Assembly: GCA_034667465.1 (NCBI GenBank)
Contig: JAXDJV010000014.1
Location: forward strand, 209 to 64,208
DNA length: 64,000 nt
Reading direction: 5' to 3'
Origin: Acidobacteriota bacterium
Lineage (GTDB): Bacteria; Acidobacteriota; Thermoanaerobaculia; Gp7-AA8
A program made the position numbers and the translations under genes. Under the pieces are notes generated by a model. It saw only the letters and a program-made list of their open reading frames with translations, did not search any database and was not told where the DNA came from. Shown here in pieces: positions 10,749 to 64,000 of this stretch (the stretch's first letter is position 1; every line of letters starts with the position of its first letter).

Positions 10749-10750
10749 CG

Positions 10751-22830: not shown

Positions 22831-23018
22831 TCGATCACCTGTTTTTTGGATGTGTTGCCCGTTGGAGGGACATGAACGGCGTTTTCGCCGCTCCGGAAGG
22901 GGAGAGTGCGCAAGCAGTCACTTCCCTGCCCGTGAAGATGAAGAAAGAAAGATCGCTCCTGCCCGTTACCTCCTTAACCGGCATGAATCCAACCTTCCGG
23001 CAATCCGTATACTCGTCA

Positions 23019-23776
23019 TGATGAACGGAAGGCAGGCGGTGCGTACGGTACGTCCCATCCGGACGGTGCTCGTCGATGACGAGCCGCTGGCGCTGGAGGG
23101 GCTGCGCGCGCTTCTCGCGCACGAGGAGGACATCGACGTCGTTGCCGAGTACGGGAGCGGCACGGCCTTCCTGCGCGATGCCGCGGCGATCGGCGCGGAC
23201 CTCGTTTTCCTCGATGTGGAAATGCCGGCTCTTTCGGGGCTGGAGGTGCTGGAACAACTCCACGCCGCGGGGGCGCAGCCGCACGTCGTTTTCGTGACCG
23301 GCTTCGACCAATACGCCGTGCGCGCGTTCGAGGAACAGGCGCTCGACTACGTCCTCAAGCCGTATCGCGCGGACCGCATGGCCAGAACGCTCTCGCGGTT
23401 GCGTCAGCAGATGGCCTGGGCGGCGGAATCGCCGGCAGCGGCCTTTCTCACCCGCGTGGCCGTCAGGAAGAACGCGCACATCCACCTCGTCAGGATCGAC
23501 GACGTCGACTGGCTCGAGACGGCGGGCAACTACGTGAGCCTGCACGTCGGTGCAGCGGAGTATCTCTACCGGACCACCATGGCGGCCATCGAGTCGCGGC
23601 TCGATCCCGCGCGCTTCGTGCGGATCCATCGCTCCACGATCGTCAACGTCGACCGCATCGTGGAGTTGCAATCCACCTTCGGTCGCGACCTCGTCGTCCT
23701 GCTGTGCGACGGCGCGCGCCTCCGCCTCGGCGCCCCCTACCGGGATGGTTTGCGCAAACTGATCGAAGGCCTCTGA
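23019..23776 (+). CDS. LytTR-family response regulator
   Basis: Receiver domain (VLVDDEPLALEGL...DLVFLDVEMP) plus a C-terminal LytTR DNA-binding domain (IHLVRIDDVDWLETAGNYVSLHV). The start is chosen at MMNGRQ, not at the ORF-track start, which overlaps the SHOCT gene. Confidence 0.85.
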
Positions 23777-23832
23777 ATTCACACTTTCGTATCGAAAGGT
23801 TGATGGCGTTCCGGCGGTCCTTACGCATATAA

Positions 23833-24933: not shown

Positions 24934-25560
24934 CGAAGCTTCATCTGCTCGGTGTGGCGAAGGTGCGGCGCAGCCTGATGCTTCCGATCATCGTGTTCAC
25001 CGTGCTGAACGCGGCGACCCATGCGCGCGGGTTCGACGGAGAGTGGTGGTGGATGGTGCCGGCGTATGTGCTCTTCGACAGCCTGCTCTGGACCGGTGTC
25101 GCGTTTCTCATTTTCGCCGTGGTCGAGTGGAGGGAGAAACTGCGTCCGCAGCCGCGCTTCGCGGCGATGGTGGTGGCGACGGCCGGCATCGCCACGCTCG
25201 CCGCGGCGATCATCACCGTTCGGGCGCTCTTCGATTCGATCATCCATCAGCAGCCATTCGTGCGGCGGTGGCTCAGGTATCTGCCGGCCGGTTTCTACGG
25301 CGCCGCGTTCTACGTCGCGATCGTCACGGGAATCGCCTACGGGGTTTATTCGTGGGCGGTCGATGACCGGCGTCTCGCCGCGGCGGCGGAGCTCGATGCG
25401 GCGATCGCGAGGGCGGAGCTGAAGGCGGCGTCGGCACGTCTGCAGCCTGAATCACTCGACGCCGCACTGGCACGAATCTCCACGCTCATCGCGACGGACG
25501 TCGCCGGCGCGCAGCGCCTCATCTCGAACCTCGGAGCGCAGTTGCACGATTCACTCGCGG
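24930..25560 (+). pseudogene. 3'-truncated paralog of a LytS-type histidine kinase (TM region plus start of kinase core only)
   Basis: TM helices then ELKAASARLQPESLDAALARISTLI (the same motif as the intact kinase). There is no ATPase domain, and the reading frame runs into the 3' end of lanB on the other strand. Confidence 0.45.
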
Positions 25561-28500: not shown

Positions 28501-28743
28501 GATGCTCTCCATGATGTCGGGCGAGGCGAGGAAGATCGCATCGGCGACTTCCGGACGACTGAGCAACGCCTGCAACCGCTCGCGCAACAGCGTGCGATCT
28601 TGCGTCAACGCGTCCTCGAGGGTTGTGTCATCAGCTGACGCTGCGCGCAGTCCATCCGTCCACGCATCGAGCGTTTCGCGTGGAAGCAACGGCGTGCGCA
28701 TTACCACCAGACCGCTCGCGCCGAACTCTGTTGGGATGGTCAT
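25519..28743 (-). CDS. lanB: Class I lanthipeptide dehydratase LanB (full length, about 1074 aa)
   Basis: The true start is taken at MTIPTEFGASGLVVMRTPLLP, the hallmark LanB N-terminus. The length fits glutamylation plus elimination domains. The 354 codons upstream in the ORF track are Arg-rich read-through. Confidence 0.85.
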   Translation of the reverse strand: MTIPTEFGASGLVVMRTPLLPRETLDAWTDGLRAASADDTTLEDALTQDRTLLRERLQALLSRPEVADAIFLASPDIMESIGAWRREPDSKKGRRTEQGLVRYFLRMVTRSTPFGLFSGCTPGRIGEQTRLALTERNAYRRHSRLDMDYLHALCEHLARIPEIRSDLTFRPNSTLYETAGRLRFAESRVAGRQRTYHLVAFDAFDALRDTLQRARGGARLRELAEALVASDPDGEITMEDAAAFVDDVVDNQLLLPDLALAVTGDESTADLLQQLEGVAAAGDARTRLAGAAHALASIDRCASSSTEERYRLIARELEPLGVPVELRRLFQVDLIKPPSDVVLGENVVAEILRGVEILHLFSQQRGEPAFDEFRSAFSERYGSDREVPLLVALDEENGIGYERAGSAAAEASPLLAGLPLRSRVERQRVALGPSDAVLLQLLVRALGEGRTEIELIDEDLARLQNIDRPPLPDAFHAMATIAATSPEAVERGDYRVHLHFASGPSGARMLGRFCHADAAIREGVEQHLAAEEALRPGALFAEIVHLPAGRIGNILARPVLRKYEIPFLGRSGAPEDAQIPLDDLLVSVSGDRIRLRSKRLDREVIPRLTSAHNTTSESLGVYRFLAAVSQGLGMQWNWGPLETLPFLPRIVSGRLVLARARWRIMSAQIQTIAASSGAARYRAVQRLREEHRMPRYVVLTDGDHELLVDFENVLALDAVVELVRNREDFVFTELYPAPDQLCAEGPEGSFFHELVIPFAKRAPVAAPAPAVRKSPAPLIQRTFAPGSEWLFAKFYTGTATADRVLAEEIAPLAADAIANSAADRWFFIRYSDPHWHLRIRFHGDPRTLRESVQPALQAAGSRLLDAGLAWKVQFDTYEREVERYGGAEAIDLVEEIFFRDSVAVIELLEACSGDAGSASRAPFIAAGIDTLLRDFGCDAAGRLRLAETSRDLLAKQFQYEAVRELLAERFRRERGAFQRLVDESTSVRALQRRSEAIAGVVAELIALERRGRLQMPLQAILQSVIHMFVNRLSRSAGPEHELVVYDYLVQLYRSQLARSGGPRVNRATALRGSR

Positions 28744-29444
28744 GACGCGATCGCTCCACGTTGAGTTTCGATGCGTGGCGGAATGCTGACGACCATCAGC
28801 CGATCCCATGACGGCTCGACGTCGGTAGCCGCGGCGAGCAACGCGAGACCGATGCCGGCGATGCCGGAGAGGAATCCCGGCTCGCCTCTCCACGAACCTT
28901 CTGCGCTCGGAGTCGATTCGTACCAGCTGAGAAATCCTGCGAGGCCTTTGCCGGGCCGGCGCATGTCGAGCGCGATCCGATACCACCGCAGCGCGGCTTC
29001 GCGAAGCTCGTCGTCGCCGGTCGCCTGCCAGATGCGGTTGAAGAGGTGCGCAACGCCGGTTGCTCCGTGACACAGACCGGCGTCGGCGACCATCGTGTCT
29101 TCGACTGAGCGCCGCGCCGCGACGCGCGCGATGCTGATCGCTTCGTCGCGCCATTCGGAGCGGTCGAACGCATGCGCGGCGGAAAGCAGCACCGCGGCGA
29201 CGCCGAGGTCGCCGTAGCACCACGCCGTGCGCGTTGGCCGCGGCGCGGAATCGGGTGGAATGTGCGATGGGAACAGCGAGCCGGGCCAGATGCCTTTCTG
29301 CGCGAGCACCCATTGCACCGCGTCGTTCGCGAGTTGCGCGACGCGCCGATCGCGCACGCCGGCATGCTGCGCGGCGGCGAGAAAACCGATCACGCCCGGG
29401 ATGCCGTGCGCGACGCCGAGGTTGTAGTGGCCGCGCGGCATCAA
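28740..29444 (-). pseudogene. lanC: LanC cyclase, C-terminal half only (GxAHG, WCYG and CHG Zn-ligand motifs present; N-terminal about 200 aa missing)
   Basis: HYNLGVAHGIPGVIGFLA, TAWCYGDLG and AGLCHGATGVAHL. The same frame continues upstream only about 35 codons (...DENGAWFSIPDWLPDWQRELMPRGH) before a stop. ATGA overlap with lanB. Confidence 0.7.
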
Positions 29445-29504
29445 CTCGCGCTGCCAGTCCGGCAGCCAGTCGGGAATCGAGAACCACGCGCCGTTTTCGT
29501 CGCG

Positions 29505-29694
29505 CGAAGAGGCCAGCAGTCCCCGCGGCCGTGAGCAACCGTTGCGCGTCGAGGCCGTGCCGCGAGAGACCGGTCACGCCGCGCACGTCGTCGAGCGAGA
29601 CGTGTCTGCCGTGCAGTGCCAGCGTCATCGCCAGACATGCCGAGCCGCAGTCCGTTGCCGCGGTCTGCGCGACGAAGGGGATGCGTTTAGCCAT
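29505..29694 (-). pseudogene. Fragment of a C39 bacteriocin-processing peptidase domain (first about 65 aa, lacking the His/Asp half)
   Basis: MAKRIPFVAQTAATDCGSACLAMTLALHGRHVSLDDVRGVTGLSRHGLDAQRLLTAAGTAGL matches the Q...CG.A.LAM...G..SL..LR......G.S..G...AA...G pattern of C39 domains. It then runs out of frame into lanC. Confidence 0.45.
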
Positions 29695-30586
29695 GACCGA
29701 GTCCCACCGCGAAGACGAGTGCCAGCAGCAGCGCGGCGACGGTGGCCACCGCGAGCCACGGTGTGCCGCGCGTCCATGCGGCGTTGAGTCGCAGCGGTTC
29801 GGCACCGGCGAGCAGCGGCTGATCGATCTCGCGCAGCGCGTTGTGCCGAAACGGACTGCCCGGCGTTTCGATCAGCCACGTGACAAGGTAGGGACTGGCA
29901 TGCGCGGCAAGTGCTTCGAGCATCGCGACGTCCTTCGGCTCGAACGGCGGATCGTGTTCCGGCCGGAGCGCGATGAGCACCGCGACGATCGCGCCGCGCG
30001 GATCGCTGTCGAGCCGCGTCAGACAGACGGTCATCCCTGTCCGCACGATGAAACTGACGAGGCCGACCGCGGCGCTCGCTTCTTCGCTCGCGTCGCCCGG
30101 ACTCCAGAGCACCTGGTGCTCGCGCTCGAACAACACGCAGCGGCTGCGACGGGTCTCGATGACGCTGCCGATCGCGCGCTCGACCGCATCGGCGACGTCG
30201 GCGACATTCTCCGCCGTCGCCATCCTCCGCAAATCCTCGGCGGGCAGAAACAGCTCGTCCGAACCTTCACGCCCATCGATCGCGCGCGCGCCGTCGATCA
30301 GCGCGTCGAGCTGGCGTTCCGGAAGGTCACCGCATGAGAGATAGAAGAGCCGATCGGCGTCGATGAGCGGCTGAAAGTCCGCGAGCTGGTCACGCGCAGT
30401 GAGAACGATGCTCGTACAGCGCGTGCCCTTCCCGGCGAAGAGGTCGAGTACCGCGATCACATCGCATGCGACGGCCCCGGGACCAAAGACGAGGACAGCG
30501 CGCTCGTGTTCCCGAATCGCGTCGAGCTGCGCGCGATCGATCGACGATTTGATGCGGTAGAGCGGCTGCGCGCTGGCACTCATCAC
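29687..30586 (-). CDS. Hypothetical protein with GAF-like domain and C-terminal TM helix
   Basis: 299 aa. The central VGLVSFIVRTGMTVCLTRLDSDPRGAIVAVLIAL block is GAF-like. C-terminal hydrophobic helix TPWLAVATVAALLLALVFAVGLG. Confidence 0.4.
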   Translation of the reverse strand: MMSASAQPLYRIKSSIDRAQLDAIREHERAVLVFGPGAVACDVIAVLDLFAGKGTRCTSIVLTARDQLADFQPLIDADRLFYLSCGDLPERQLDALIDGARAIDGREGSDELFLPAEDLRRMATAENVADVADAVERAIGSVIETRRSRCVLFEREHQVLWSPGDASEEASAAVGLVSFIVRTGMTVCLTRLDSDPRGAIVAVLIALRPEHDPPFEPKDVAMLEALAAHASPYLVTWLIETPGSPFRHNALREIDQPLLAGAEPLRLNAAWTRGTPWLAVATVAALLLALVFAVGLGHG

Positions 30587-31370: not shown

Positions 31371-31423
31371 GGGTAGTTGGCAGCGCATACGGATTTGAAC
31401 CCGTGTTACCGCCGTGAGAGGGC
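31371..31423 (-). repeat. Direct repeat of the 3' half of tRNA-Glu plus 8 nt of 3' flank (attachment-site-like repeat, candidate attR)
   Basis: gggtagttggcagcgcatacggatttgaacccgtgttaccgccgtgagagggc matches 37362-37418 with 3 differences, in the same orientation. Confidence 0.7.
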
Positions 31424-31664
31424 TATAGCGGCGAATCTATATCTATCTGATTCCAAATGTTTAGCGCGACATCGCCATCTTGCGGGTCCGCCGAAATATG
31501 CCATTTCGGGCACCTCCAAGGCCAAGTATGCGATGGGTTTTGCGAAGGCAACTACCCCGGCCACAGTTGCGGAAACGATTGACCGAGGTCTGACCTCCAA
31601 CGCATTCCGCCTTCACTGTAACGAATTGCTCTCTTTCGTCACTACACAAGGTGAGGAGATCCAT

Positions 31665-34604
31665 ATGTCACACGTCACCGGGACGCTCCAGCCAGTCGCG
31701 CCGTCGAAGACCATCGGCCCCGGAACGGGGGATCCGCCCAGCTCACCAGGGGTGTGGAGTTTCAACTTCATTCCCACGGACGCGCCCGGCGGAACCAAGC
31801 TGGCGGTGCTGCATTTCAAGAACGTCAGCCTTCCCGGCACGAGTAAGCTCGAAGTGGATCTGGGCTATGCCACAGACGTCTTCACCTCCGCCGACGGCGC
31901 TGAGTTTTGGACGCGTCCCGCGAACATCTATCCCGCCGCCCTCGGCGGACTCGATGGCAAAGTCCCGATCCGCTACATTCAGGGCGGCGGCGCGGGAACC
32001 GTGGAGCTCGATGTCTGGGGTCGCGGCGAACAGCATGCCGGCGAGCCCGGTCATCCCAGCATCTCGAACTCCGACCCGTTTCAGAAGGAACTCAACTACG
32101 TCGAGCCGACGTATGACCCGTTCTGGTTTTGCGTCAATCCACCGAACTGGGAGAACGCGTCGAAGGTGGTCGATCCCGACGTCCGGGCGCATGTTGCGCG
32201 AAGCGTCGGCATGATCCTCACCGTCGAGAAAAGCACCTCCAGCCCCACCATTCAGCTCTCCACGTGCTCGGTGACACTGATCGATACCGACAAGATCATC
32301 ACCGCCGGGCACTGCCACACGCCCCAGGAAGCACTCAACAGTGCCGTCACGTTCGACTGGCGCCTGACCGCCGACGGCAAGAGGCCGAATCCGTACACCT
32401 GCCGCTTCTACAAGGTAAAGAGCGTCGTCAAGCATCATTACGCCGGCGGCTTCGACTACAGCATTCTCCGGCTCGCGGAAGCACCAGTGGGTATTCCGAT
32501 CGTGCAGATGCGACACGATCTCCCCGGCGTCGGCGAGCATGTGTTCGGAGTTCACCAACCGAACGGCGCGCCGAAGAAGTTGTCCGTTCCCCATCCTGGA
32601 TTCGACACTGTGGTGACCAGCGCGGCGATGTCGATCACCGTGCCGACGAACTTCCACGTGTCGGGCGGCAGCTCCGGATCGGGACTCTTCGACACGGCCG
32701 GCCGAATCGTCGGCGTGCTGTCGAACGGCGACCCCTGCGGCGGCGGCGCGCTGTCGTACTTCCCCACGGCCACGGTCATGACCGATCTGGTCCCCGTTCC
32801 CCCACCAGCAGTAACGCGCGATGTGATGGTGGTCTTCGACCGGTCCGGCAGCATGTCGCTCGACGACGGCACCGGGCGCAAGAAGATCGATGTCGCGCGC
32901 GACGCCGTCTCGCTATTCGTGCAACTGGTCAAATCGTCCGCCGGCAATCGCGCCGGTCTCGTGTCATTCAGCACCACGGCCAGCATGCCGGTCGACTTCG
33001 CGATCACCAGCGTCACCGATCCGCACAAGCTCGCGCTGATTGGGCCGGCGCCGTATTCGGGAGGCAAGGTCGGAGCGTTGATGCCTGGCGGGGCGACAAG
33101 CATCGGCGAAGGGCTCGATGCGGCACGTCTGCAGTTCCCTGCGCCCGGCGTGAATCCGCGCGCGATCCTGCTGCTCACCGACGGCCTGCAGAACACGCCG
33201 CGCATGATCGGCGACGTCGAAGGAGCTCTGGCGGGTATCGACTTGCACGCCATCGGATTCGGAACCGATGCCAGTCTCGACGGCGCGATCCTCAACAATC
33301 TCGCTGCGGCGCACAACGGCTTCTATACCCGCGCCGCCAACGGCCTGTCTCTCGAGAAGTTCTTCTCTCATGCGTTCGGAAATATCTTCGAAAACGGCGT
33401 TCTGTTTGATCCGGAGTTCGATCTTCCGGCCACCCAGAGAGAATCGAAACCGCTGTCGTTCAATATCTGCGGCGAGGAAACGGTGACCGCGATCATCGGA
33501 TGGAACGAAGTCAACGGTGCGCTTCGTATCAACGTCCGGACTCCCGGCGGCGCGCTCATCACCGGAGCATCACCCGGCGTCATCGAGAACTCCGGCCGGA
33601 CGTGGTCGTTCCTGCGCATGCCGCTGCCTCAAGGAGCGGAACGCGACGGCGTCTGGACGCTGACCGTGGTCCGTCCCGGCGGCGGCGAGTTTCCGCCTCC
33701 ATCACCAGATCTACGTTACTTTGTCAGCGTCGTCCCCACCGGCGGTCCGCGTCTGCGGCGGATGCCGGACAAGCGCCGCTACTACACCGGCCAGACGATC
33801 AATCCGCTGGTCGAGCTTCGCTACGACGACAACACGTGGCCCGAACGAGTGCACAAAGTCGAGATCACGATATCGATTCCGACGATCAATGCCGGAACTT
33901 TGCTCTCGCGTGGGGGACTCCGGCCGCCGATGACGATCGACGCCGATACAGTCCCCTCGAGGCAGACGACCCTGCTCGCTCTCGAACAACACGGCAAGCC
34001 GGTGATCGGATACCACGAGCAGACGTTCGAGCTCAGCGGCGAATCGGCGGATACGGATGGGCAATTCGAAGAAGCGGCGGTGTTCGGTAGGCGCTTTACG
34101 GATCTTCTCGCCGCGGAAGGCAACTACACGTTCCACTGCCGCGCAACGTACGGCGAAGGCTGCACTGCAACGCGTGAAATGCTTTGGAGCGTTCACGTCG
34201 ACATCGGCATCGATCCGTCGCATACCGTCACGACAAGCACGACGACAACGACGCATCCCGACGGCTCGACGACCGGAACGGTTACGTTTACACCGCGCGA
34301 CCGCTACGACAACAACCTCGGGCCCGGCCGCACCGACGGCATTTCCATCGCTGGCATCTCCGGCACGTCCGTGACCGGACCGCCGGTCGACAATGGCGAC
34401 GGTTCCTACACCGTGCCGGTCTTGGTCGCGGCCGGCGCCGATCCCGGCGTCGTCATCGTCCAACCCGGCCTCCCCCCCATCGTTGTCGCACCGTCCAAAC
34501 CCGCTCCGCTGGTGCCTCGCAAGGACTGCAAGACGTGGAAGTGGCTCTTCTGGATACTGCTATTCATCATTGTCGTGCTCCTGGTCCTATTGTTCTTGAA
34601 ATAG
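31665..34604 (+). CDS. Large exported protein with a trypsin-like serine peptidase domain, a von Willebrand factor A domain and a C-terminal TM anchor
   Basis: The start is chosen at MSHVTGT, which has GAGGAG 6 nt upstream. Trypsin-like motifs (ITAGHC ... GGSSGSGLF). vWA MIDAS motif (VVFDRSGSM ... LLLTDG). C-terminal WKWLFWILLFIIVVLLVLLFLK helix. Confidence 0.7.
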   Translation: MSHVTGTLQPVAPSKTIGPGTGDPPSSPGVWSFNFIPTDAPGGTKLAVLHFKNVSLPGTSKLEVDLGYATDVFTSADGAEFWTRPANIYPAALGGLDGKVPIRYIQGGGAGTVELDVWGRGEQHAGEPGHPSISNSDPFQKELNYVEPTYDPFWFCVNPPNWENASKVVDPDVRAHVARSVGMILTVEKSTSSPTIQLSTCSVTLIDTDKIITAGHCHTPQEALNSAVTFDWRLTADGKRPNPYTCRFYKVKSVVKHHYAGGFDYSILRLAEAPVGIPIVQMRHDLPGVGEHVFGVHQPNGAPKKLSVPHPGFDTVVTSAAMSITVPTNFHVSGGSSGSGLFDTAGRIVGVLSNGDPCGGGALSYFPTATVMTDLVPVPPPAVTRDVMVVFDRSGSMSLDDGTGRKKIDVARDAVSLFVQLVKSSAGNRAGLVSFSTTASMPVDFAITSVTDPHKLALIGPAPYSGGKVGALMPGGATSIGEGLDAARLQFPAPGVNPRAILLLTDGLQNTPRMIGDVEGALAGIDLHAIGFGTDASLDGAILNNLAAAHNGFYTRAANGLSLEKFFSHAFGNIFENGVLFDPEFDLPATQRESKPLSFNICGEETVTAIIGWNEVNGALRINVRTPGGALITGASPGVIENSGRTWSFLRMPLPQGAERDGVWTLTVVRPGGGEFPPPSPDLRYFVSVVPTGGPRLRRMPDKRRYYTGQTINPLVELRYDDNTWPERVHKVEITISIPTINAGTLLSRGGLRPPMTIDADTVPSRQTTLLALEQHGKPVIGYHEQTFELSGESADTDGQFEEAAVFGRRFTDLLAAEGNYTFHCRATYGEGCTATREMLWSVHVDIGIDPSHTVTTSTTTTTHPDGSTTGTVTFTPRDRYDNNLGPGRTDGISIAGISGTSVTGPPVDNGDGSYTVPVLVAAGADPGVVIVQPGLPPIVVAPSKPAPLVPRKDCKTWKWLFWILLFIIVVLLVLLFLK

Positions 34605-50427: not shown

Positions 50428-50901
50428 TCAGACGGAAAGCGCGCGAACCTGCGCGGTCTCCGGAATTCCATTCGATGTGGCACGGCCGAAACGCCGCTGA
50501 AGCGAGTGACGTACACGCCGCAACACGGCGAGGGCCTGCTGTGTGAGAGCGCCGCGCGAATCGACGGCGGCGCAACGGCCGTCGCGCTCGACGCCGGAGA
50601 TCCGGCCGAGAACGGCGCTGCCGGCGACGATGGCGTCGGCGGTAAGTGAGTTGTCGCCGCGCGTGCGAACGCGCAGCTCGCCGCGCGTCGCGTCGAGCTC
50701 GATGATTCGATGCGCGGTCAGGCCGCGCGGCGCGGCGGTGAGCACGACGTCGCCGACGCGCAGCGATTCTTCATCGCAGCGCGTGACGTGCACGAATTCG
50801 CCGCTGCGAATCGTCGGAATCATGCTGTGTCCCGACGCGCAGAACCGCGCGTCGTAGCCCGCGGCCAGCACGTCCTGCAGCGTGTTGACGAACATCGTCA
50901 T
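50428..50901 (-). CDS. S24/S26-family (LexA/signal-peptidase-like) Ser peptidase, candidate leader peptidase
   Basis: ASGHSMIPTIRSGEFVHV...GDVVL resembles the GxSMxPT nucleophile motif. 157 aa. Translationally coupled (ATGA) to the HprK-like gene. Confidence 0.55.
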   Translation of the reverse strand: MTMFVNTLQDVLAAGYDARFCASGHSMIPTIRSGEFVHVTRCDEESLRVGDVVLTAAPRGLTAHRIIELDATRGELRVRTRGDNSLTADAIVAGSAVLGRISGVERDGRCAAVDSRGALTQQALAVLRRVRHSLQRRFGRATSNGIPETAQVRALSV

Positions 50902-51805
50902 CCGTTCCTCCGCACCACCTCGACGACGCTGTCGTCGGGTGTGAAGCGCAGCAGCCTGACCGGCACGCGCGCGCAGATGTCCGCCAGAAACTCGATCGTG
51001 AATGCGAGTGCGGCGGGGTCATAGAAAGGGGGAAAGGTGCAGCCGAACAACATTGCCGACGCGGTTGCCGGCGCGAGCGACTCGAGCTCGGTGAGGGGTG
51101 CCTGGCGCAGGATGTAAACGCCGGCCAGCGGCGCGGTCGACGCCGACGATAGCTCCGCTTCGCCGTGCCATGGCGTGCCGAACATCCGCAGCACGCCGTC
51201 CACGTCGCGCACAATCACGCGATCGTCGCTGACGATGTCGATGCCTGCTTCGCGCAGCCACACTTTGCCGGTGGTGGTCTTGCCGGCGCCCGACTGGCCG
51301 ACGAACAGATGGCCGCGGCCGTCGCGATCGATGACGCCGCATCCGTGCAGCTCGACGCCGCGTCCGCGGCCGAGGAGATTCGCGACGAGCACTTCATCGA
51401 GCGGATAGTCGAGCGGATGCATCGTCGGAAGATCGGCATCGGCGCTCAGCAGAATGCGTCCCGACGTGAAGCTCGAATTCAGCAGCGCCACTTTGTACGG
51501 CGCGTCGCCGAACATCGCCGAATGACACTCGATCCGATAGCCGTCGCCGTCCGCGTAAAGACGCCAGACGCCGCCCGATTCGAAGAGCAGCTCACCGCGC
51601 GGATGGAGGTCGCGTTCGTCGAGGCGATCGACCGTCAGCGTCAAATCGGCGTCAGCGAGCGGTGAAACTTCGAAGCGGCCGGTGGTCGCGGAAAGTCCGC
51701 GGCCGAGCGACTGATCGGCGTAGTGCAACGCGATGCCGAGCCCTCCGATCGTGAGAAAGGAGGAGCTGATCACAACCGCGTGCTCGCCGGAGACGCTCAT
51801 GACCC
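50898..51805 (-). CDS. HPr kinase-related (HprK C-terminal-domain-like) peptide kinase
   Basis: Real start at MSVSGEHAVV. P-loop region LHGCGVIDRDGRGHLFVGQSGAGKTTTG is characteristic of HprK-related kinases in RiPP clusters. The ATG overlaps the stop of the precursor gene. Confidence 0.8.
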
Positions 51806-51975
51806 GGCGGTCTGACAGGGGCCGGTCACGAAGCAGTTGCCGCCGCTGGCGCCCGCCGCCGATGCCGACTTGCAGAAGCCGAGCACCGCTTCTTCGGGAC
51901 GCAGCGGAAAGCGCCGCACTTCGGGCTTCTCGTACGGTTTCTTCTCTTCGGTATGACCTTCGTTCTGCATGCTGA
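51802..51975 (-). CDS. 57-aa RiPP precursor peptide (not in ORF track): MQNEGHTEEKKPYEKPEVRRFPLRPEEAVLGFCKSASAAGASGGNCFVTGPCQTAGS
   Basis: Strong RBS (AAGAGGA 6 nt upstream). It lies between the rSAM/SPASM gene (7 nt upstream) and the HprK-like gene (ATGA overlap). Charged leader, then a Gly/Ala/Ser-rich core with 3 Cys and a C-terminal Ser. Confidence 0.6.
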
Positions 51976-51981
51976 TCCTCT

Positions 51982-53244
51982 TTATCGGCCGGCCCCGGCC
52001 GAGCAGTTGTCACAGCCTCCCGAACCGCAGGAGGAGACGAGTGGACGTGGTTGCGCCGCGGCGATGGCGGCGATTCGTTCGGCGCCGCCGTTCCGCAGCG
52101 CGGCGGCGGTGCCCCGCAGTCGCGAAACGTCGTCGCACATCGTGCAGTGGCCGTGCGGCCGCACCGGAATGTCGAACGTGATGGCGCGCAGATGCGCGAC
52201 TTCACAAAGGAAATCGACCGGCGTTTCGGGATCGCCGTTCTCCAGCTCTCCGTTGGCGGGACACATTCCGCACATCGACTTCAGCGAGCACGTCGTGCAT
52301 TTGCCGGGACGCGATTGCGGCCGCTGGCGCACGCCGCGGAGGAAGTGATTCCAGCCATCGCTCACCGAGCCGTCGCGGACGTTGTAGCGATCGACGTGCG
52401 AGAGCACGCAGATCGACATGTCGCCGTATGGATCGATGGCGAACGAGTTCACGCCGCCGCCGCAGTCATAGAGCTGCGGCGTCTGACCTTCCGGCACCGG
52501 CATCGGCTGGAACTTCGCGACCAGCTCCTGCCACGCGACGATTCGCTCCGGATCGTCGAGATCGAGCGACACGATTTCTTCCGGCGTCAGCCGGACCGCG
52601 AGCGGACTCGAAGAGCAGTCGATGCGCGGATTGATCATCGCGTCGAACTTGAATTCGACACCGAGGTTCTCCGCCATCGCGGCCATCGCGCCGATCTCGT
52701 GTTTGTTGATCGAGACCGCGACCGTTTTGAGTTTCAGCGGCAGTCCGCGCTCCAGCAGCAGCGCGATGCCGCGCATGCAGAGGTCGTACGATCCCGCGAT
52801 TCCGGTCAGTCCTTCGTACGTCTCGCGTGTCGCGCCGTAGAGCGTGATCTCGATCGAGAACGGCGGCCACTTCACCAGCTCATCGGCAATCGCCTCGGTG
52901 ACCATCGTGCCGTTCGTGAACAGCGTGACGAGCAGACCGCGGCGGATGGCGTGGCGATAGATGTCGAGGAAGTCGCGGCGCGCGAAGATCTCGCCGCCGG
53001 TGTAGAGGAGCCAGAGACAACCGAGATCGGCCAGCTCGTCGATGATGCGGTGATGCTCGGCGGTGGTCAGCTCGCGTGCGCGAGCAACGCCGTCGTGCAT
53101 CGGCAGGTTGTTGTAGCAATGCGCACAATCGAGCGGGCAACGGTTGGTGATCTCGACGGTGCCGTTGACCGGTACACGCGTCGCGTTCACCTCGCGGTGA
53201 ATGAACGCACTAAACTCGGCGTAGCTCCCGCTCTCGATACTCAT
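51982..53244 (-). CDS. Radical SAM enzyme with SPASM domain (peptide-modifying maturase)
   Basis: CPLDCAHCYN (CX3CX2C), SPASM cysteines (YDCGGG...SICVLSH..., CTTCSLKSMCGMC) and a Cys-rich tail (SSCGSGGCDNCS). Confidence 0.85.
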   Translation of the reverse strand: MSIESGSYAEFSAFIHREVNATRVPVNGTVEITNRCPLDCAHCYNNLPMHDGVARARELTTAEHHRIIDELADLGCLWLLYTGGEIFARRDFLDIYRHAIRRGLLVTLFTNGTMVTEAIADELVKWPPFSIEITLYGATRETYEGLTGIAGSYDLCMRGIALLLERGLPLKLKTVAVSINKHEIGAMAAMAENLGVEFKFDAMINPRIDCSSSPLAVRLTPEEIVSLDLDDPERIVAWQELVAKFQPMPVPEGQTPQLYDCGGGVNSFAIDPYGDMSICVLSHVDRYNVRDGSVSDGWNHFLRGVRQRPQSRPGKCTTCSLKSMCGMCPANGELENGDPETPVDFLCEVAHLRAITFDIPVRPHGHCTMCDDVSRLRGTAAALRNGGAERIAAIAAAQPRPLVSSCGSGGCDNCSAGAGR

Positions 53245-53302
53245 AAATTGTCGATGGACCCTTTTGGACCAAAGGGTGTCGGGAAAAGATTATTGCACCG
53301 TA

Positions 53303-53619
53303 TGATGAAACGAACGATGACAACCCATCAGGAAAGCGTGATTTACGCGAAATCGGACAATCTCGTGATGCGGTCGGTCGGGGGCGAAACCATCCTCGTC
53401 CCGGTGCGCAGCAACGTCGGCGATCTCGATTCGGTCTTCACCCTGAACGCAGTCGCGGCTCGAATCTGGACGCTGCTCGACGGAAAGCGCAGCGTCGATG
53501 AGGTGATCGACGAGCTCTCCAGCGAGTACGACGCGGCGCCGGACGTCATCCGCGCCGATGCCGTCGAACTGCTGGCCGCGCTCGAAGAGGGAAAGCTCGT
53601 CAGCCGCGTACGCGCGTGA
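53303..53619 (+). CDS. PqqD-family RiPP recognition element (peptide chaperone)
   Basis: About 105 aa. VMRSVGGETILVPVRSNVGDLDSVFTLNAVAARIWTLLDGKRSVDEVIDELSSEYDA is the PqqD/RRE signature. Only the last third of the 52051-53619 ORF is real. Confidence 0.75.
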
Positions 53620-54681
53620 AGAGCTTTGCGACCGCACCGAGCGCGCGACGGAGGTAGAGGAACGGCAGCGCGACGTTGCTCGCTCCCGGAAATCGAGCGC
53701 GCATCTGTTCGGCTGACGGAAACGCGAGCAGCCGCAGGAATCGCAAGCGTTTGCCTTTCGCGGCGCGCAACTCTGCGATCAGTTCGCTGATGTGAAGCCG
53801 TTGCGGATCGAGGAAGCTCTCCGATTGCTCGCGATGCGATGTCCGTTCGAACGCCGGCGCTTCATCGGACGCGAACCATTCGAACGCGCGCGAAAGACCG
53901 TCGGCGCAGATGGCGACGATCTCTCCTTCGACCGCTCGCTGACGGAAGAGCCGTCGTTCGTCGGGAGTGAGCGCGCGCCAAAGCAGCACGAGGTCGTAAA
54001 GCCAGATCAGCCGATCGTCGCCGTGATGATGTGCGACGCGATGGACGCACGCGATGAGCAGCGAGTCGACAGTGGCCGGGATGCGCAGGCCGGACGCGGT
54101 CGTCGTTCCGTTCGCGCGGAGCGCGTCGACGTCGAAGAGCCGCGCCAGTTCGCGCGCGTTGCTGATCGCCCAGTGCAGATCGAGGACGTCGCCGGCGTGC
54201 GAGCCGCGAAGCATCACCTGCGCCGACGGCGCATTGCGCGGCGACATCTCGGCGACGTACCCGAGCGCGCGCAGCGCGTCGACGGCACGCTCCGCTTCGG
54301 ACGGCGCGACGATCAGGTCGACGTCGGCACGCGGCCGCAGTCCGCGCGATGGATAGATCGACTCGGCGAGCGCCGTCCCTTTGATGAAGAGCGGCGTGAT
54401 CTCGTGTGCACGCAGCGCTTCGACGACCTCGGTCATCCGCACGATGCCGCGCTCAGCAAGCATCGCGTTTCCGAACGCGTCGCGGCGCAGCGCGTCGACG
54501 AGCTCGCGCGGCCAGTCGCCGTGCACCAGCGTGAAGAGGAGCGGCTGCAGTCCGTGCTCGCGCGTGGCGCGCAGGAGAGGCGCGAGATCGGCCGGCGGCG
54601 CGGCGTCGCGTCCGGCGAAGAGGTCGCGCAGCCAGCGCCGCTCATCTGCCGTGACCTCAATCAGCGAAGCGTCTTCACGCA
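53600..54681 (-). CDS. Uncharacterised nucleotidyltransferase-family protein (PF14907-like), start uncertain (possible TTG)
   Basis: About 357 aa of credible sequence (...LQPLLFTLVHGDW...PLFIKGTALAESIYPSRGLRPRADVDLIV...). The family co-occurs with HprK-like kinases in RiPP clusters. The upstream 400 codons of the ORF-track version are antisense to the TonB-dependent receptor gene. Confidence 0.55.
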
Positions 54682-54712
54682 AGTTCGCACCTGACCGTCT
54701 AACATTCTGATC

Positions 54713-59577: not shown

Positions 59578-60156
59578 ATGCCGAATGCAATCACGATGTT
59601 GAAAGCCGACCATGTGAAGGTGAAACGCCTTCTGAACGAGCTGAACCAGGTGACCGCGCCGAAGCAGCGCGAGTCGCTCGTCGCAGAGATCGAGCGGGAG
59701 CTGAAGACGCACACGCAGATCGAGGAAGAGGTCTTTTATCCGGCGTTCAAAGCGGCCGCCGGGAAGACCGACGCCGTCGACATGTTCTACGAAGCGGCCG
59801 AAGAACATCACCTCGTCGACATGGTGCTGCCGGCGCTGAAATCGGCGAACCCGAAGTCGCACGAGTTCGAAGCGAAGGCGAAAGTCATCAAAGAACTGGT
59901 CGAGCATCATGTGAAGGAAGAAGAGAACGAGATGTTCCCGAAGATGCGGCAGCTGGTCGGCGACGAACAGCTCCGCGAGATCGGCGACCTGATGCAGGCC
60001 CGCCGCGAACAGATCGAAGCGATGTGGGATCACCCGATTCTGCGTCAGGTGAAAAAAGCGCAGAGCGCCGCCGGAAAGCTGATGCCGACGAAAGTGAAGA
60101 CTGCGAAAGCGGCCGTTCTCTCGAAGGTGATCGGCGACAGATCCGAAGCACGCTGA
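59578..60156 (+). CDS. Hemerythrin-like (HHE cation-binding) domain protein
   Basis: RBS AAAGGAG. H/E motifs LKADHVKVKRLL, HTQIEEEVFYP, EEHHLVD and VEHHVKEEENEMFP. Confidence 0.8.
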   Translation: MPNAITMLKADHVKVKRLLNELNQVTAPKQRESLVAEIERELKTHTQIEEEVFYPAFKAAAGKTDAVDMFYEAAEEHHLVDMVLPALKSANPKSHEFEAKAKVIKELVEHHVKEEENEMFPKMRQLVGDEQLREIGDLMQARREQIEAMWDHPILRQVKKAQSAAGKLMPTKVKTAKAAVLSKVIGDRSEAR

Positions 60157-60218: not shown

Positions 60219-60734
60219 ATGCGCAGGACTGTTGTTGCCATTGCTGTCGCTGTCCTCTCGACCACCGCTGCCTTTGCCGGCGAGCTTCGCGCCGGCAGCA
60301 CCAGCATTTCCGTTTATCTCAGTGACGTCGGCTTCGTTCACAGCTCGACGACCGGCTCGTCATGGAGCGGCGGTGGCGGATTCGCTCTCGACCACGCGTG
60401 GACCGACCGCGTTTCCACCGTCCTGTCGGTCGGCGCGGAACGTCGCAGCGGCTCCACATTTCCTGTCGATCTGATCGCCCGCTATCACTTCACCAACTCG
60501 TCGATCTGGACGCCGTACTTCGGCGCCGGTGCTCGCTATGTCAAAGGGCCGGGCGGTGGTGAAGCGACGACGGTCATCCGCGACCGCAGCAGCGCCGAAG
60601 TGAATGGCGGCGTGCTGCTGCGCGTCACGCCGCGCGTCAATCTGCAGTTCGACGTCAAACACCTTCTTCGCAGCGACAGCGTGACCTTCGATCCGAACAC
60701 GAAAGCTTCGATCGGCGTGAGCTGGCGTTTCTGA
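60219..60734 (+). CDS. Small outer-membrane beta-barrel protein (OmpW/OmpA-like barrel)
   Basis: Signal peptide MRRTVVAIAVAVLSTTAAFA, alternating amphipathic strands and C-terminal ...IGVSWRF. Confidence 0.6.
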   Translation: MRRTVVAIAVAVLSTTAAFAGELRAGSTSISVYLSDVGFVHSSTTGSSWSGGGGFALDHAWTDRVSTVLSVGAERRSGSTFPVDLIARYHFTNSSIWTPYFGAGARYVKGPGGGEATTVIRDRSSAEVNGGVLLRVTPRVNLQFDVKHLLRSDSVTFDPNTKASIGVSWRF

Positions 60735-60782
60735 CTCCACGTGATACTTTCGTGACACTCACCAACTAGTTTCGCGGGTGTC

Positions 60783-61487
60783 ATGAACCGGAAGATCCTC
60801 GTCGTCGAAGATGACCGCGACATCGCGGCGCTCGTCGAATTGCACCTGCGCGATCTCGGCGCGGACGTCACGCTCGTACACGACGGCCGCGCCGCACTCG
60901 ACCTCGCCATGGCGCGCAGCTTCGATCTCATCGTGCTCGATCTGATGCTGCCGAGCGTCGACGGACTGGAGATCTGCCGCCGCCTGCGCGCACAGAATCG
61001 CTACACGCCGATCCTGATGCTGACCGCGCGCTCGACAGACGTCGATCGCATCGTCGGACTCGAGATCGGCGCCGACGATTACCTGACCAAGCCGTTCAAC
61101 GTTCGCGAGCTCGTCGCGCGCGTGAAAGCGCTGCTGCGCCGCGTCGATGCGCTGTCAAAGAACGAACCGGAAGAAATCTCGCGAATGGAGTTCGGCGAGC
61201 TGACCATCGACGTCATCAAACGTCGCGTGACGCTGCGCGGCGCCGAGGTCGAGCTGACTGCTCGAGAGTTCGAGCTGCTGCTCCATTTCGCGCGGCATCC
61301 CGGACGCGTTTACACGCGCGCGCAACTGCTCGATCAGGTCTGGGGCTACGGCCACGAAGGCTACGAGCACACCGTCAACTCGCACATCAACCGGCTCCGA
61401 TCGAAGATCGAGCACGACCAGTCGCAGCCCGGCTACATCCTTACCGTCTGGGGCGTCGGCTACAAGTTCCGCGACGCGCATGTTTAA
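60783..61487 (+). CDS. OmpR/PhoB-family response regulator
   Basis: Receiver domain (ILVVEDDRDIAALV...DLIVLDLMLP...LMLTA) and winged-helix domain (LTAREFELLLHFARHPGRVYTRAQLLDQVWG). Confidence 0.9.
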   Translation: MNRKILVVEDDRDIAALVELHLRDLGADVTLVHDGRAALDLAMARSFDLIVLDLMLPSVDGLEICRRLRAQNRYTPILMLTARSTDVDRIVGLEIGADDYLTKPFNVRELVARVKALLRRVDALSKNEPEEISRMEFGELTIDVIKRRVTLRGAEVELTAREFELLLHFARHPGRVYTRAQLLDQVWGYGHEGYEHTVNSHINRLRSKIEHDQSQPGYILTVWGVGYKFRDAHV

Positions 61488-62946
61488 GAGTCTCTACACG
61501 AAACTCGCGCTCGTGCTCCTCGCGCTTTTCTGCGCGGTGACCGGCGTCTGGTTCTGGCTCACGGTCCGGATGACGCGTCTCTATCTCGACGAAGCGACGC
61601 AGAAGTTGAATCGCGGACTCGCCCGAACGATCGCGCTCGAAAAGCCGCCGATGCGCGACTGGCATGTCGATCGCGCCATGCTCGACAAAGTCTTCGAGGC
61701 GCTGATGGCCGTCAATCCGAACATCGAGATCTATCTGCTCGATCGCGACGGCCGCATGCTCGCGTTCTCCGCGCCGCCCGGGAAAGTGAAACGCGATTCG
61801 GTTTCGCTCGCGCCGGTTCGACGTTTCCTCGCCGGCGCGCCGCTGCCGATTCGCGGCGACGATCCGCGCGACGTCGCCGGACAGAAAATCTTCTCCGTGA
61901 CCCCGCTGCCGGCCGTCCGCATCGGCGAGCCGCAACCTCAGACCCAGGGCTACCTCTACGTCATCCTCGGCGGCGAGGAGTACGACTCCGCGGTGCAACG
62001 GTTGCGCGGCAGTTTCATCATGCGGCAAAGCGCCGAAGCCGCCGCGGCCGCGGTGCTCTTCGTCCTCGCAACCGGACTGCTGCTCTTCGCATTGATGACG
62101 CGACGCCTTCGCAATCTCTCCGCGGCGATGGAAGCGTTCAAGCGGAGCGACTTCACCGATACGGTGCGCGTCGGCGGACGCGAAGACGGTGATGAAGTCG
62201 ATCGACTCGCGGCGACGTTCGATGAGATGTCATCGCGCATCGCGCTGCAGGTTGCGAAGCTGAAGGAGGTCGATCTCCTTCGTCGCGAGCTGGTCGCGAA
62301 CGTGTCGCACGATCTCCGGACGCCGCTCGCGTCGCTGCGCGGTTACCTCGACACGCTGCTGTTGAAGGAAGGCTCGCTGACCGCCGAGGAGCAGCGAAGG
62401 TTTCTCGAGATCGCCAGCAAGCATTCCATTCGACTGGGACGACTCGTCGACGAGCTGTTCGAGCTCGCGAAACTCGACGCGCAGGTCGCACCGATCCGCC
62501 GCGAGCCATTCTCGATGCCCGAGCTCGTGCAGGACGTCGTGCAGAAGTTCCAGCTGCGCGCGGAGCAGGGAGGGGTGCGCGTCGATGCGGAGCTGAGCGC
62601 CGAGCTGCCGCTCGTTTCCGGCGATCTCGCGCTGATGGAGCGCGTGCTCGAGAACCTCATCGAAAATGCCATCCGTTACACGCCCGCGGGCGGGCAGGTG
62701 ACGGTGACGCTCGTGCCGGAGAACGGACGTCTGACCGTGCGCGTGTCAGACACCGGATGCGGAATCGCCGAGGAAAGCCTGCCGTACATCTTCGACCGCT
62801 TCTATCGCGGCGACGATGCCGCGTCACGCGCCGACGGTGCCGGATTGGGACTCGCCATCGCGAAGCGCATCGTCGAATTGCACGGGAGCTCGCTGACGGC
62901 GCGGAGCCAGGTGAACGCGGGAACGACGTTTACGTTTGCGGTTTAG
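61480..62946 (+). CDS. Sensor histidine kinase (TM-HAMP-HisKA-HATPase), partner of the preceding response regulator
   Basis: Two TM helices, a HAMP domain, the H-box LVANVSHDLRTPLASL, N-box LENLIENAIRYTP, G1 DTGCGI and G2 GLGLAIAK. The start overlaps the regulator gene stop. Confidence 0.9.
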   Translation: MFKSLYTKLALVLLALFCAVTGVWFWLTVRMTRLYLDEATQKLNRGLARTIALEKPPMRDWHVDRAMLDKVFEALMAVNPNIEIYLLDRDGRMLAFSAPPGKVKRDSVSLAPVRRFLAGAPLPIRGDDPRDVAGQKIFSVTPLPAVRIGEPQPQTQGYLYVILGGEEYDSAVQRLRGSFIMRQSAEAAAAAVLFVLATGLLLFALMTRRLRNLSAAMEAFKRSDFTDTVRVGGREDGDEVDRLAATFDEMSSRIALQVAKLKEVDLLRRELVANVSHDLRTPLASLRGYLDTLLLKEGSLTAEEQRRFLEIASKHSIRLGRLVDELFELAKLDAQVAPIRREPFSMPELVQDVVQKFQLRAEQGGVRVDAELSAELPLVSGDLALMERVLENLIENAIRYTPAGGQVTVTLVPENGRLTVRVSDTGCGIAEESLPYIFDRFYRGDDAASRADGAGLGLAIAKRIVELHGSSLTARSQVNAGTTFTFAV

Positions 62947-63031
62947 CCGGCGCGGGATGGTTTTGTGATCTTTTGACGAATCCGGCGTGACAACTCGGCC
63001 GTAGCTTGAGGTCATAGGAGGGTTCAACCCA

Positions 63032-63415
63032 ATGAATACTCGTGATCTCGCTCGTTACCTCGTCCTCGGTGGAGTTCTTTCCGGTATGACCGCCGGCACC
63101 ACGCTTCTCGCTGCAAACGCTCCGAGCACCACCGACAACGGCCAGTCTTCCATCATCGAAATGTCGAAGAAGAAGACCGCCGAAGTCGACAAACACGCCT
63201 GCAAAGGCCTCAACGCCTGTAAAGGCCACGGAAACTGTAAGAGCGGCGACAACGGTTGCTCCGGCAAGAACTCCTGCAAGGGCAAAGGCGGTTGCGCGTC
63301 CAAGTCCGTGCGGCACGGCTGCGCCGGCAAGAACGCCTGCAAAGGCCAGGGCGCCGGCGGCAAGAACGACTGCAAGAGCAAAGGCTCCTGCGCCGTTCCG
63401 CCGAAGGCTTCGTAA
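63032..63415 (+). CDS. Bufferin-like (DUF2282-type) Cys-rich secreted RiPP precursor
   Basis: Sec signal peptide, then 12 Cys in repeated CKG/CxGKN motifs ([66 protein letters not shown]). Immediately upstream of a DUF692 gene. Confidence 0.7.
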
Positions 63416-63430
63416 GACTGCGATCGCTCG

Positions 63431-63458
63431 CCCCTCACGCGTTTGCGCGCGTGAGGGG
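63431..63458 (+). terminator. Intergenic hairpin (CCCCTCACGCG-TTTG-CGCGTGAGGGG) between the precursor gene and the MNIO gene; attenuator or terminator
   Basis: Perfect 11-bp stem. No T-run, so it is more likely a partial terminator or RNA-stability element. Confidence 0.5.
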
Positions 63459-63480
63459 CACAATACGCGTACACACAAAC

Positions 63481-64000
63481 ATGAATCGATTCGGCTATCC
63501 CGACCTCGGCATCGGACTCGGTCTCCGCACGACGCACTATTCGCACATTCTCGGCAATAGTCCGCCGGCCGGCTGGTTCGAAGCGCTGAGCGAAAACTAT
63601 CTCGATACCGGCGGACGACCGGCGTTCGTGCTCGACAAAATCGCCGAACGCTATCCGGTCGTACTGCACGGCGTCTCGATGTCGATCGGCGGAACCGATC
63701 CGCTCGATTTCGATTACCTGCGCAAATTGAAAGCGCTCGCGAAGCGCGTCAATGCGCGCTGGATTTCCGATCATCTCTGCTGGACCGGAGTCGCCGGACG
63801 CAACGCGCACGATCTGCTGCCGCTGCCGTACGACGAACAGACGCTGCGACATTGCGTGGAGCGTGTCCGCATCGTTTCCGATTTTCTGGAACGGCCGCTC
63901 GTCATTGAAAACCCGTCGTCATATGTGGAGTTCGCGCAGACGACGATGAGCGAGTGGGAGTTCATCGCGCGCCTCGCCACGGAGGCCGACTGCGGACTGC
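63481..64000 (+). CDS. DUF692 / multinuclear non-heme iron oxidase (MbnB/BufB-like MNIO), 3'-truncated by window end
   Basis: [24 protein letters not shown]...[16 protein letters not shown]...[15 protein letters not shown]...WISDHLCW... is the canonical DUF692 TIM-barrel signature. Confidence 0.8.

Follow-up and report, generated by a model that had tools for sequence, protein, structure and literature searches.

A bufferin-type operon with a ten-cysteine, BufA2-like precursor and a candidate two-component regulator in an Acidobacteriota bacterium

Introduction

What kind of peptide is made from the cysteine-rich protein encoded at the end of a 64,000-nucleotide stretch of DNA from an Acidobacteriota bacterium (contig JAXDJV010000014.1, positions 209 to 64,208, hereafter the window), and how is its production controlled? 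The bufferins or captophorins, recognised recently, form a very widespread class of peptide metallophores of the periplasm. A first-pass annotation, made from the letters of the window, had taken its end for a bufferin-type locus of the RiPPs (peptides made by the ribosome and modified after translation), that is, a precursor gene followed by a gene for a multinuclear non-haem iron oxidase (MNIO, DUF692), and extension of the contig bears this out. The end of the window is read here, with a probability of about 85%, as part of a bufABCD operon of the bufferin/captophorin class, BufA2 branch, of which the window contains the 5' half and which would work by the mechanism proposed below. The host is an uncultured bacterium, probably one of the Thermoanaerobaculia (Acidobacteriota).

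Gene organisation of the locus

The contig was extended on L001, an 838-kb JGI metagenome contig which encodes exactly this precursor and equals the window across 10,969 shared bases. On L001 the genes bufA, bufB, bufC and bufD all lie on the + strand (10001-10384, 10450-11292, 11306-12064 and 12065-12535, respectively). The gap between bufA and bufB is 65 nt and that between bufB and bufC 13 nt, bufD begins right after bufC, and a convergent enoyl-CoA hydratase gene forms the far end of the operon. As described earlier from the window, the MNIO gene follows a hairpin and is cut by the window end, breaking off after codon 173 of 280; the DUF2063 partner and the DoxX-type gene that were expected past this point are both found directly downstream on L001. 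The features of the locus are as follows, given in amino acids (aa) for proteins.

60741..60772, + strand: regulator promoter region with CGTGA repeats, a candidate autoregulatory operator
60783..61487, + strand: OmpR/PhoB-family response regulator, 234 aa, with Pfam Response_reg and Trans_reg_C
61480..62946, + strand: sensor histidine kinase, 488 aa, with HAMP, HisKA and HATPase domains
62965..63006, + strand: bufA promoter and candidate operator, with phased repeats and a -10-like hexamer
63016..63021, + strand: ribosome-binding site AGGAGG, read off the sequence, 10 nt 5' of the bufA ATG
63032..63415, + strand: bufA, for a bufferin precursor of BufA2 type (127 aa, 10 Cys), assigned by NCBIfam BufA2, homologues and MNIO linkage
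63032..63112, + strand: putative Sec signal peptide (about the first 27 residues), from hydrophobicity and an Ala-rich c-region
63194..63295, + strand: unit 1, complete 6-Cys BufA2 unit, Cys57-Cys88, from spacing and the NCBIfam BufA2 match
63314..63391, + strand: unit 2, reduced 4-Cys unit (Cys97, 103, 114 and 120), from alignment A1 and spacing
63430..63459, + strand: bufA-bufB intergenic stem-loop of 13 bp, loop UUGC, without a U-tract
63481..64000, + strand: bufB, MNIO (DUF692), first 173 of 280 codons in the window, the gene ending at window-equivalent 64323
window-equivalent 64337-65095, + strand: bufC (DUF2063), 252 aa, on the parent contig L001
window-equivalent 65096-65566, + strand: bufD (DoxX), 156 aa, on the parent contig L001

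Two minus-strand open reading frames (ORFs), 62930-63478 and 63055-63852, overlap these genes; they are read as artefacts of high G + C content, because the plus-strand genes are strongly supported by homology.

The precursor BufA

A database search with BufA gave 1273 homologues at E <= 1e-3, so its ORF is not a chance ORF; the named homologues are all "hypothetical protein", and the closest ones come from Thermoanaerobaculia/Acidobacteriota metagenome-assembled genomes with at most 84% identity. The N-terminus is like that of a signal peptide, with recognisable n-, h- and c-regions: two Arg are followed by a hydrophobic stretch (Kyte-Doolittle mean 1.59 over 19 residues) and an Ala-rich c-region, with candidate cleavage sites behind residue 27 or 28. 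The remaining 100 residues are rich in Gly, Lys and Cys, with 17 Gly and 18 Lys + Arg, and contain the motifs CKG (four times), CKS (twice), CSGKN and CAGKN. Therefore the length of 127 aa, the signal peptide (as a prediction) and the CKGxG/CxGKN repeats given in the first-pass annotation stand, while its count of 12 Cys has to be corrected to ten, at residues 57, 63, 69, 76, 82, 88, 97, 103, 114 and 120. Its DUF2282 pattern has also to be given up. Pfam gave no match for BufA, DUF2282/BufA1 (PF10048) being absent at E <= 0.01, and PF10048 matched 0 of 37 aligned members of the BufA family even at E <= 1. The only curated match is instead to NCBIfam BufA2 (NF050166; E = 1.5e-10, 41.1 bits, residues 40-89).

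Lys follows six of the ten Cys, two NACKG motifs among them, and these Cys-Lys motifs put BufA in the "Cys-Lys" captophorin group as defined in PMC13097082; neither the EGKCG motif nor a Lys-Cys dipeptide occurs in BufA. Judged by these features, BufA is a 10-Cys (6+4) derivative of the BufA2 / BUF_6/12Cys ("Cys-Lys") subfamily.

Few parts of the precursor are conserved as well as the signal-peptide region (63032-63112), in which alignment A1 has M1, G13, G18 and G22 without variation and L6 almost so; an ordinary Sec signal is not usually conserved to this degree. Because these 27 residues are so conserved, they may double as a leader or recognition sequence for BufC.

Cysteine architecture

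Unit 1 has the pattern H-x-C-x5-C-x5-C-x6-C-x5-C-x5-C, and its spacing (6,6,7,6,6) is the same as in 6-Cys and 12-Cys members of the family. Unit 2 has the spacing 6,11,6, as do the listed 10-Cys clusters of the best 120. In alignment A1 the 6+4 precursors are colinear with their 12-Cys relatives except for a gap of 8 columns, that is, an 8-residue deletion took Cys III and Cys IV from a second 6-Cys unit. A census by Cys spacing of the 120 best protein clusters, which come from uncultured Acidobacteriota, gave the following architectures.

12 Cys: two complete units (C-x5-C-x5-C-x6-C-x5-C-x5-C), 13 of the best 120 clusters
10 Cys: 6+4 form, as in the window, 64 of the best 120 clusters (commonest)
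8 Cys: 4+4 form, 30 of the best 120 clusters
18 Cys: three units, 2 of the best 120 clusters

References with one genome per species, by contrast, have the 6-Cys form at 32 loci, the 12-Cys form at 38 and the 6+4 form at merely 3. Because of this, the 6+4 form is best described as a clade-specific derivative, though it is abundant in the metagenome clusters.

Modifying enzymes and their linkage to the precursor

BufB is a member of NCBIfam NF050167 (MNIO_BufB) with 365.4 bits, above the cutoff of 310, and of Pfam PF05114 with 363.9 bits (E = 5.6e-109); it stays below the cutoff of the HvfB model (255.6 bits vs 360) and far below that of the MbnB model TIGR04159 (41.5 bits vs 325). It can be aligned with the solved MNIOs 3BWW, which is the closest (E = 3e-47), and TglH (8HCI). 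The motif types HG, DH, EN, DxNN, HxxGH, DxH and ExD are all present and complete, with H63, D97-H98, E143, D176/N179, H207/H211, D220/H222 and E249/D251, and these His, Asp and Glu motifs are taken for iron ligands on the basis of published structures of MNIOs. The position equivalent to Phe250 of FonB is Phe in 0 of 73 family MNIOs (Asp in 31, Ala in 23 and Glu in 14), and BufB of the window has Ala252-Asp253 there. An MNIO without Phe at this position is a criterion of the "Cys-Lys" class (PMC13097082), into which the family MNIOs thus fit.

The gene directly downstream of bufB is DUF2063-like, BufC scoring 70.6 bits on this Pfam model (cutoff 27.2). BufD scores 69.9 bits on Pfam DoxX and 77.3 bits on HvfX (cutoff 80). 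The linkage extends to the family: 78 family loci have 1.5 kb or more of sequence 3' of the precursor gene, and in 71 of them an MNIO gene lies directly downstream; in the whole survey of 84 loci, a BufC gene follows at 71 loci and a DoxX gene at 29.

Some loci deviate in their enzymes. In close relatives (L006 8086-9147 and L007 7956-8999), DoxX and a methionine sulfoxide reductase (PMSR/MsrA) domain form one fusion protein, while DoxX is an unfused protein of 156 aa in the window's contig. The Acidobacteriota contig L009 carries two adjoining MNIO clusters (2511-4532 and 6001-8202); the first consists of MNIO and DUF2063 genes and then a weakly BufA1-like gene, and the second has a 12-Cys BufA2-type gene and an MNIO gene which is apparently frameshifted or split, as its 608-nt "spacer" still codes for MNIO sequence. 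Moreover, L042 (5001-5231), a record titled "MAG: Klebsiella pneumoniae", encodes a 58%-identical precursor of the Acidobacteriota type with no MNIO downstream, and this contig is probably mis-binned or mislabelled.

Proposed mechanism

The bufA gene would give a 127-aa precursor consisting of a Sec-type signal peptide, a 6-Cys BufA2 unit and a 4-Cys remnant unit. In the cytoplasm, the iron oxidase BufB and its partner BufC, a DUF2063 protein with a putative C-terminal RiPP recognition element, would convert the internal Cys of each unit to 5-thiooxazoles by four-electron oxidation. Homology with Buf2 and Buf1 predicts modification of Cys63, 69, 76 and 82 (unit 1) and of Cys103 and 114 (unit 2), with disulfides forming from the outer Cys (57-88 and 97-120) once the peptide is exported. 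Six thiooxazoles and two disulfides correspond to a predicted total mass shift of about -28.2 Da; the 5-thiooxazoles of this class of clusters are marked by -4.03 Da each and absorbance near 305 nm. The product would be exported by the Sec pathway to the periplasm, where it would bind surplus copper or another, related soft metal. An excess of precursor mRNA over enzyme mRNA is probably maintained by the stem-loop that follows bufA, and the OmpR-type regulator and the kinase probably drive transcription; the regulator would bind 11-bp-phased CGTGA repeats at its own and the bufA promoters.

Both the 5-thiooxazole chemistry and the copper function are proposed for the 6+4 peptide by homology with characterised bufferins. 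In Buf2, Cys I and Cys VI are unmodified and probably form a disulfide, and each of the four central Cys has lost 4.03 Da; the central two Cys of Buf1 were assigned as 5-thiooxazoles by nuclear magnetic resonance (NMR); and the buf1 and buf2 operons are both copper-induced and protective, DoxX being dispensable for modification (PMC11626156). The shift of -4 Da per modified Cys which the first-pass annotation had expected agrees with the value published for Buf1 and Buf2 in the same paper.

The intergenic stem-loop

Between bufA and bufB there is a GC-rich stem-loop (63430-63459) with a perfect 13-bp stem, a folding energy of -32.1 kcal/mol and z = -3.8, and 0 of 200 shuffles fold equally well. 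Strong GC-rich stem-loops of unrelated sequence are found at the same position of the bufA-bufB spacer in L006, L007 and L008. In a survey of 68 family spacers against mononucleotide shuffles, 49 (72%) fold with z < -2, and the median z is -3.1. In some lineages (e.g., L015 and L018) a T-run is added to the hairpin, which makes it a canonical terminator. The hairpin of the window is not a known RNA family, since an Rfam scan (E <= 1) gave merely two matches at chance level. The stem-loop probably acts by partial termination/attenuation or by stabilisation of the 3' end, and in this way would hold precursor mRNA above enzyme mRNA.

Two-component system and promoter repeats

The response regulator stays below every NCBIfam equivalog cutoff, scoring 181.6 bits on the heavy-metal model TIGR01387 (cutoff 279.2). 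In the kinase, two transmembrane helices (about 9-29 and 187-207) flank a periplasmic domain of about 155 aa, and of the NCBIfam models only TIGR01386, that of the heavy-metal sensor kinase subfamily, aligns over the full length, with 170.2 bits (cutoff 292.55). In a comparison with the PDB, the kinase was matched through its catalytic core only, which carries no information on the sensor domain. The order regulator, kinase, bufA is kept in at least 12 related loci, with identities of at least 74% for the regulator and at least 64% for the kinase.

The two genes and bufA are also connected by their promoters. The regulator promoter contains the direct repeat CGTGAT-ACTTT-CGTGACA in 11-bp phase, followed by 9 bp and a -10-like TAGTTT (60741-60772). 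In the bufA promoter, GTGA (62965-62968), a degenerate ACGA (62976-62979) and GTGA (62987-62990) are likewise spaced in 11-bp phase and are followed by 9 bp and a -10-like TAGCTT (63001-63006). In alignment A2 of the 12 loci linked to the two-component system, the 11-bp-phased CGTGA repeats upstream of bufA are invariant and then come 9 bp and a TAnnnT hexamer; the GTGA, TCC and CGTA columns are invariant amid variable flanks. In most of the related loci examined that contain the start codon of the regulator, CGTGAT(A/G)CTTTCGTGA is found 38-42 nt 5' of this codon, with N9 and TAnnnT behind it; GTGAT(A/G)CTTTCGTGA is absent upstream of the regulator in L007 and L010. In L130-L133 and L143 bufA is more than 1 kb away from the kinase and still has the motif.

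In the 64 kb, CGTGA-N11-TAGNTT occurs at exactly two sites, which are both promoters (60751-60772 and that of bufA), with 0.00 expected from shuffles. Taken alone, neither GTGA-N7-GTGA (2 sites against 2.15 expected) nor the extracytoplasmic-function-sigma-like core GARTCC-N16-CGTAG shows enrichment in the window, so reliance is placed on conservation across loci; a scan of 60500-64000 for sigma-70 promoters gave no site. Phased repeats followed by such a hexamer are a layout typical of OmpR/PhoB-type activators. The shared CGTGA repeats therefore suggest autoregulation and direct control of bufA by the OmpR-type regulator.

An orthologous two-component system was considered as a general feature of the family and was rejected, since it is limited to one sub-clade and absent from the wider family. 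Sister loci of the 6+4 and 4+4 forms (L008 3265-5904; L097-L126 upstream) have no co-directional two-component system. Their common feature is a divergent gene, the product of which is secreted, has 275 aa and bears the motif HELVH (HExxH); in many of them this gene is followed by a DUF4118/KdpD-like kinase and a regulator. Their upstream region is a different one, conserved among them, in which TGCA-N6-TGCA and GCATCC-N16-CGTA occur. In addition, genes for hemerythrin (window 59578-60156) and enoyl-CoA hydratase (L001 12525-13265) flank the module of two-component system and bufferin operon in L001 and L006, and the hydratase gene does so in L007 as well; this is probably lineage synteny.

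Comparison with known systems

The nearest characterised relative is Bufferin 2 of Caulobacter vibrioides (BufA2B2C2, CCNA_02999-03001), which shares a precursor with a Sec signal (predicted in the case of BufA), Cys-Lys motifs such as NACKG, the 6-Cys unit, the gene order precursor, MNIO and DUF2063 partner, and an MNIO of the BufB type (PMC11626156, PMC13097082). Unlike Bufferin 2, whose family members have 6 or 12 Cys, the precursor of the window has 10 Cys as 6+4 and falls below the BufA2 cutoff; its outer Cys span 31 residues, whereas those of Buf2 are Cys24 and Cys50; its host is an Acidobacteriota; its operon has a DoxX gene, which is missing from C. vibrioides buf2; and it is adjacent to an OmpR-type two-component system, whereas buf2 is under unlinked SigF/NrsF control. 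Published surveys describe Buf2 clusters as having no linked sigma/anti-sigma genes.

Bufferin 1 (BufA1, DUF2282/PF10048, buf1ABCD) is similar in its four-gene operon including DoxX and in the logic of its four Cys, with an outer disulfide and two inner thiooxazoles, which the reduced unit 2 may mimic. However, the precursor here has no PF10048 match and belongs to another fold family, and its neighbourhood is free of sigma/anti-sigma genes. Oxazolin/HvfA, fontiphorin and gonophorin (Buf_EGKCG, the "Lys-Cys" captophorins) have the same pair of MNIO and DUF2063 protein, often with DoxX, but BufA contains no EGKCG repeat and no Lys before any Cys, and the MNIO of the window lies below the HvfB cutoff and has Ala-Asp, not Phe, after the catalytic Asp. 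In methanobactin (MbnA/MbnB/MbnC), too, an MNIO-family enzyme turns Cys of a ribosomal peptide into a copper ligand, as would be the case for BufA. The differences are that the MbnB model is far below its cutoff, the partner is DUF2063 and not MbnC, BufA is much longer, export would be by Sec and not by a dedicated exporter, and the role would here be detoxification and not copper acquisition.

Alternative explanations

Several observations weigh against the assignment to a copper-responsive BufA2-type operon. BufA stays below the curated BufA2 cutoff of 60 bits, which relatives with complete repeats exceed (P0104 80.3 bits, P0113 89.6 bits), and its unit 2 is without two of the six family Cys. 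AlphaFold2 with the 37-sequence alignment gave no confident fold for BufA (pLDDT 43, pTM 0.13), and a PDB sequence search with the precursor profile gave no match. BufC reaches 54.1 bits (E = 1.9e-14) on the full-length HvfC model, the cutoff of which is 142, and a PDB sequence search with BufC gave no match either. The hairpin is not a canonical terminator, because no T-tract (U-tract) follows it, and a terminator scan makes no call. No copper-homeostasis gene was seen among the large ORFs of the window. Regulator and kinase both score below the cutoffs of their heavy-metal subfamilies, and no His or Cys is invariant in the kinase sensor domain across 12 orthologues; for these reasons the signal that induces bufA may not be copper. 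The two-component system is linked in one sub-clade only, and the sister loci have another, divergent neighbourhood. Because the pattern CGTGA-N11-TAGNTT was defined post hoc from the two promoter sites, conservation across loci is the stronger promoter evidence.

The Cys-rich protein might escape modification and be secreted as a metal-binding or disulfide-rich protein akin to metallothionein, to which the MNIO is adjacent incidentally, as its lack of a Pfam match, its low-complexity Gly/Lys/Cys composition and the AlphaFold2 result without a fold would suit, and published surveys describe some Buf precursors as encoded apart from any MNIO (PMC12452194). Against the 7 of 78 loci in which no MNIO is found downstream, however, stand the 71 in which MNIO and BufC follow directly 3' in the same order, and this linkage is a strong argument against an unmodified protein; moreover, the sole family match is to the BufA2 metallophore model, the MNIO is a BufB equivalog and the gene gaps are operon-like, so that this explanation is highly improbable. 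It is also improbable, if less extremely so, that the MNIO of the same cluster makes oxazolone/thioamide pairs, as in methanobactin and in the first proposal for HvfA. These products are isobaric with 5-thiooxazoles, oxazolone/thioamide was the original assignment for HvfA (PMC11252979), and BufB scores on the HvfB model as well (255.6 bits). Yet the residues in Buf1 were assigned as 5-thiooxazoles by NMR (PMC11626156), a subsequent revision made 5-thiooxazole the structure in oxazolin too (PMC13097082), and selective labelling favours 5-thiooxazole in bufferins (bioRxiv 10.64898/2025.12.15.693703), although in peptides other than the BufA described here. A precursor modified to 5-thiooxazoles by BufB and BufC is thus the preferred reading.

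With the same chemistry, the role could still differ from copper detoxification, the peptide serving against another soft metal or against redox or envelope stress and the two-component system sensing a non-metal signal. The sensor domain without invariant His or Cys, a score which does not reach the level of CusS/CopS, the absence of cop/cus genes among the large ORFs of the window, the DoxX-MsrA fusions in close relatives, which hint at oxidative stress, and the MerC-bufferin fusions, which suggest other metals in some lineages (PMC12452194), all agree with this. We nevertheless consider it unlikely: every characterised member (Buf1, Buf2, fontiphorin and oxazolin) is linked to copper (PMC11626156, PMC13097082), and it is the heavy-metal sensor subfamily that gives the only full-length alignment of the kinase. 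Somewhat more credence, though well short of an even chance, is given to the regulator and kinase being syntenic neighbours which do not regulate the bufferin operon at all. They are absent from most family loci, sister 6+4 loci differ in their neighbourhood, GTGA-N7-GTGA alone is found as often as expected, and the hemerythrin and enoyl-CoA hydratase genes are likewise syntenic; synteny alone, however, does not suit the phased CGTGA repeats with N9 and TAnnnT, which are kept at both promoters despite diverged flanks, and which are retained in the loci where bufA is more than 1 kb from the kinase. Direct control of bufA by the OmpR-type regulator therefore stays the preferred candidate for the regulation of the operon.

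Significance

The locus is a canonical bufferin operon and brings no new chemistry or logic. It documents that the 6+4 Cys architecture is abundant in soil Acidobacteriota, where automated annotation misses such precursors because they score below the current curated BufA2 cutoff. It documents, in addition, a candidate for a concrete regulatory link from a two-component system to a Buf2-type operon, and a stem-loop between precursor and enzyme genes, the position of which is conserved across the family. The benefit lies in annotation and in the choice of an expression strategy rather than in the opening of a new question.

A more far-reaching possibility, which we regard as doubtful, is that the 6+4 precursor represents a separately regulated bufferin subclass, in which a Buf2-type site with four thiooxazoles is joined to a Buf1-like site with two thiooxazoles and a disulfide, and which has its own two-component system with a sensor free of metal-ligand residues. 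If this were true, such a system might answer a signal other than free copper, and the metal stoichiometry and selectivity might be unlike those of known bufferins.

Other clusters in the window

Two further gene groups of the window are of RiPP type, the second of them probably so. The first is a lanthipeptide-type cluster in two parts (7049-14153 and 22694-29805), with the following genes.

7049-8053, - strand: LanC-like protein
7911-10748, - strand: second ABC transporter
10751-12913, - strand: C39-ABC exporter
12903-14153, - strand: HlyD-type protein
22694-24933, + strand: LytTR regulator and its kinase
25519-29805, - strand: LanB dehydratase, 1427 aa, with an N-terminal C39 peptidase-like segment

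A record look-up for the ORF 31377-34604 found none. The region 50898-54682 is a probable third RiPP cluster and is composed as follows.

50898-51800, - strand: weakly ScmC-like protein
51797-51970, - strand: 57-aa ORF with the C-terminal end CKSASAAGASGGNCFVTGPCQTAGS
51982-53244, - strand: radical SAM enzyme
53302-53619, + strand: PqqD
53600-54682, - strand: NTP_transf_5 nucleotidyltransferase

A gene for a Peptidase_C25/CLIPPER protein of 2294 aa adjoins this radical SAM cluster.

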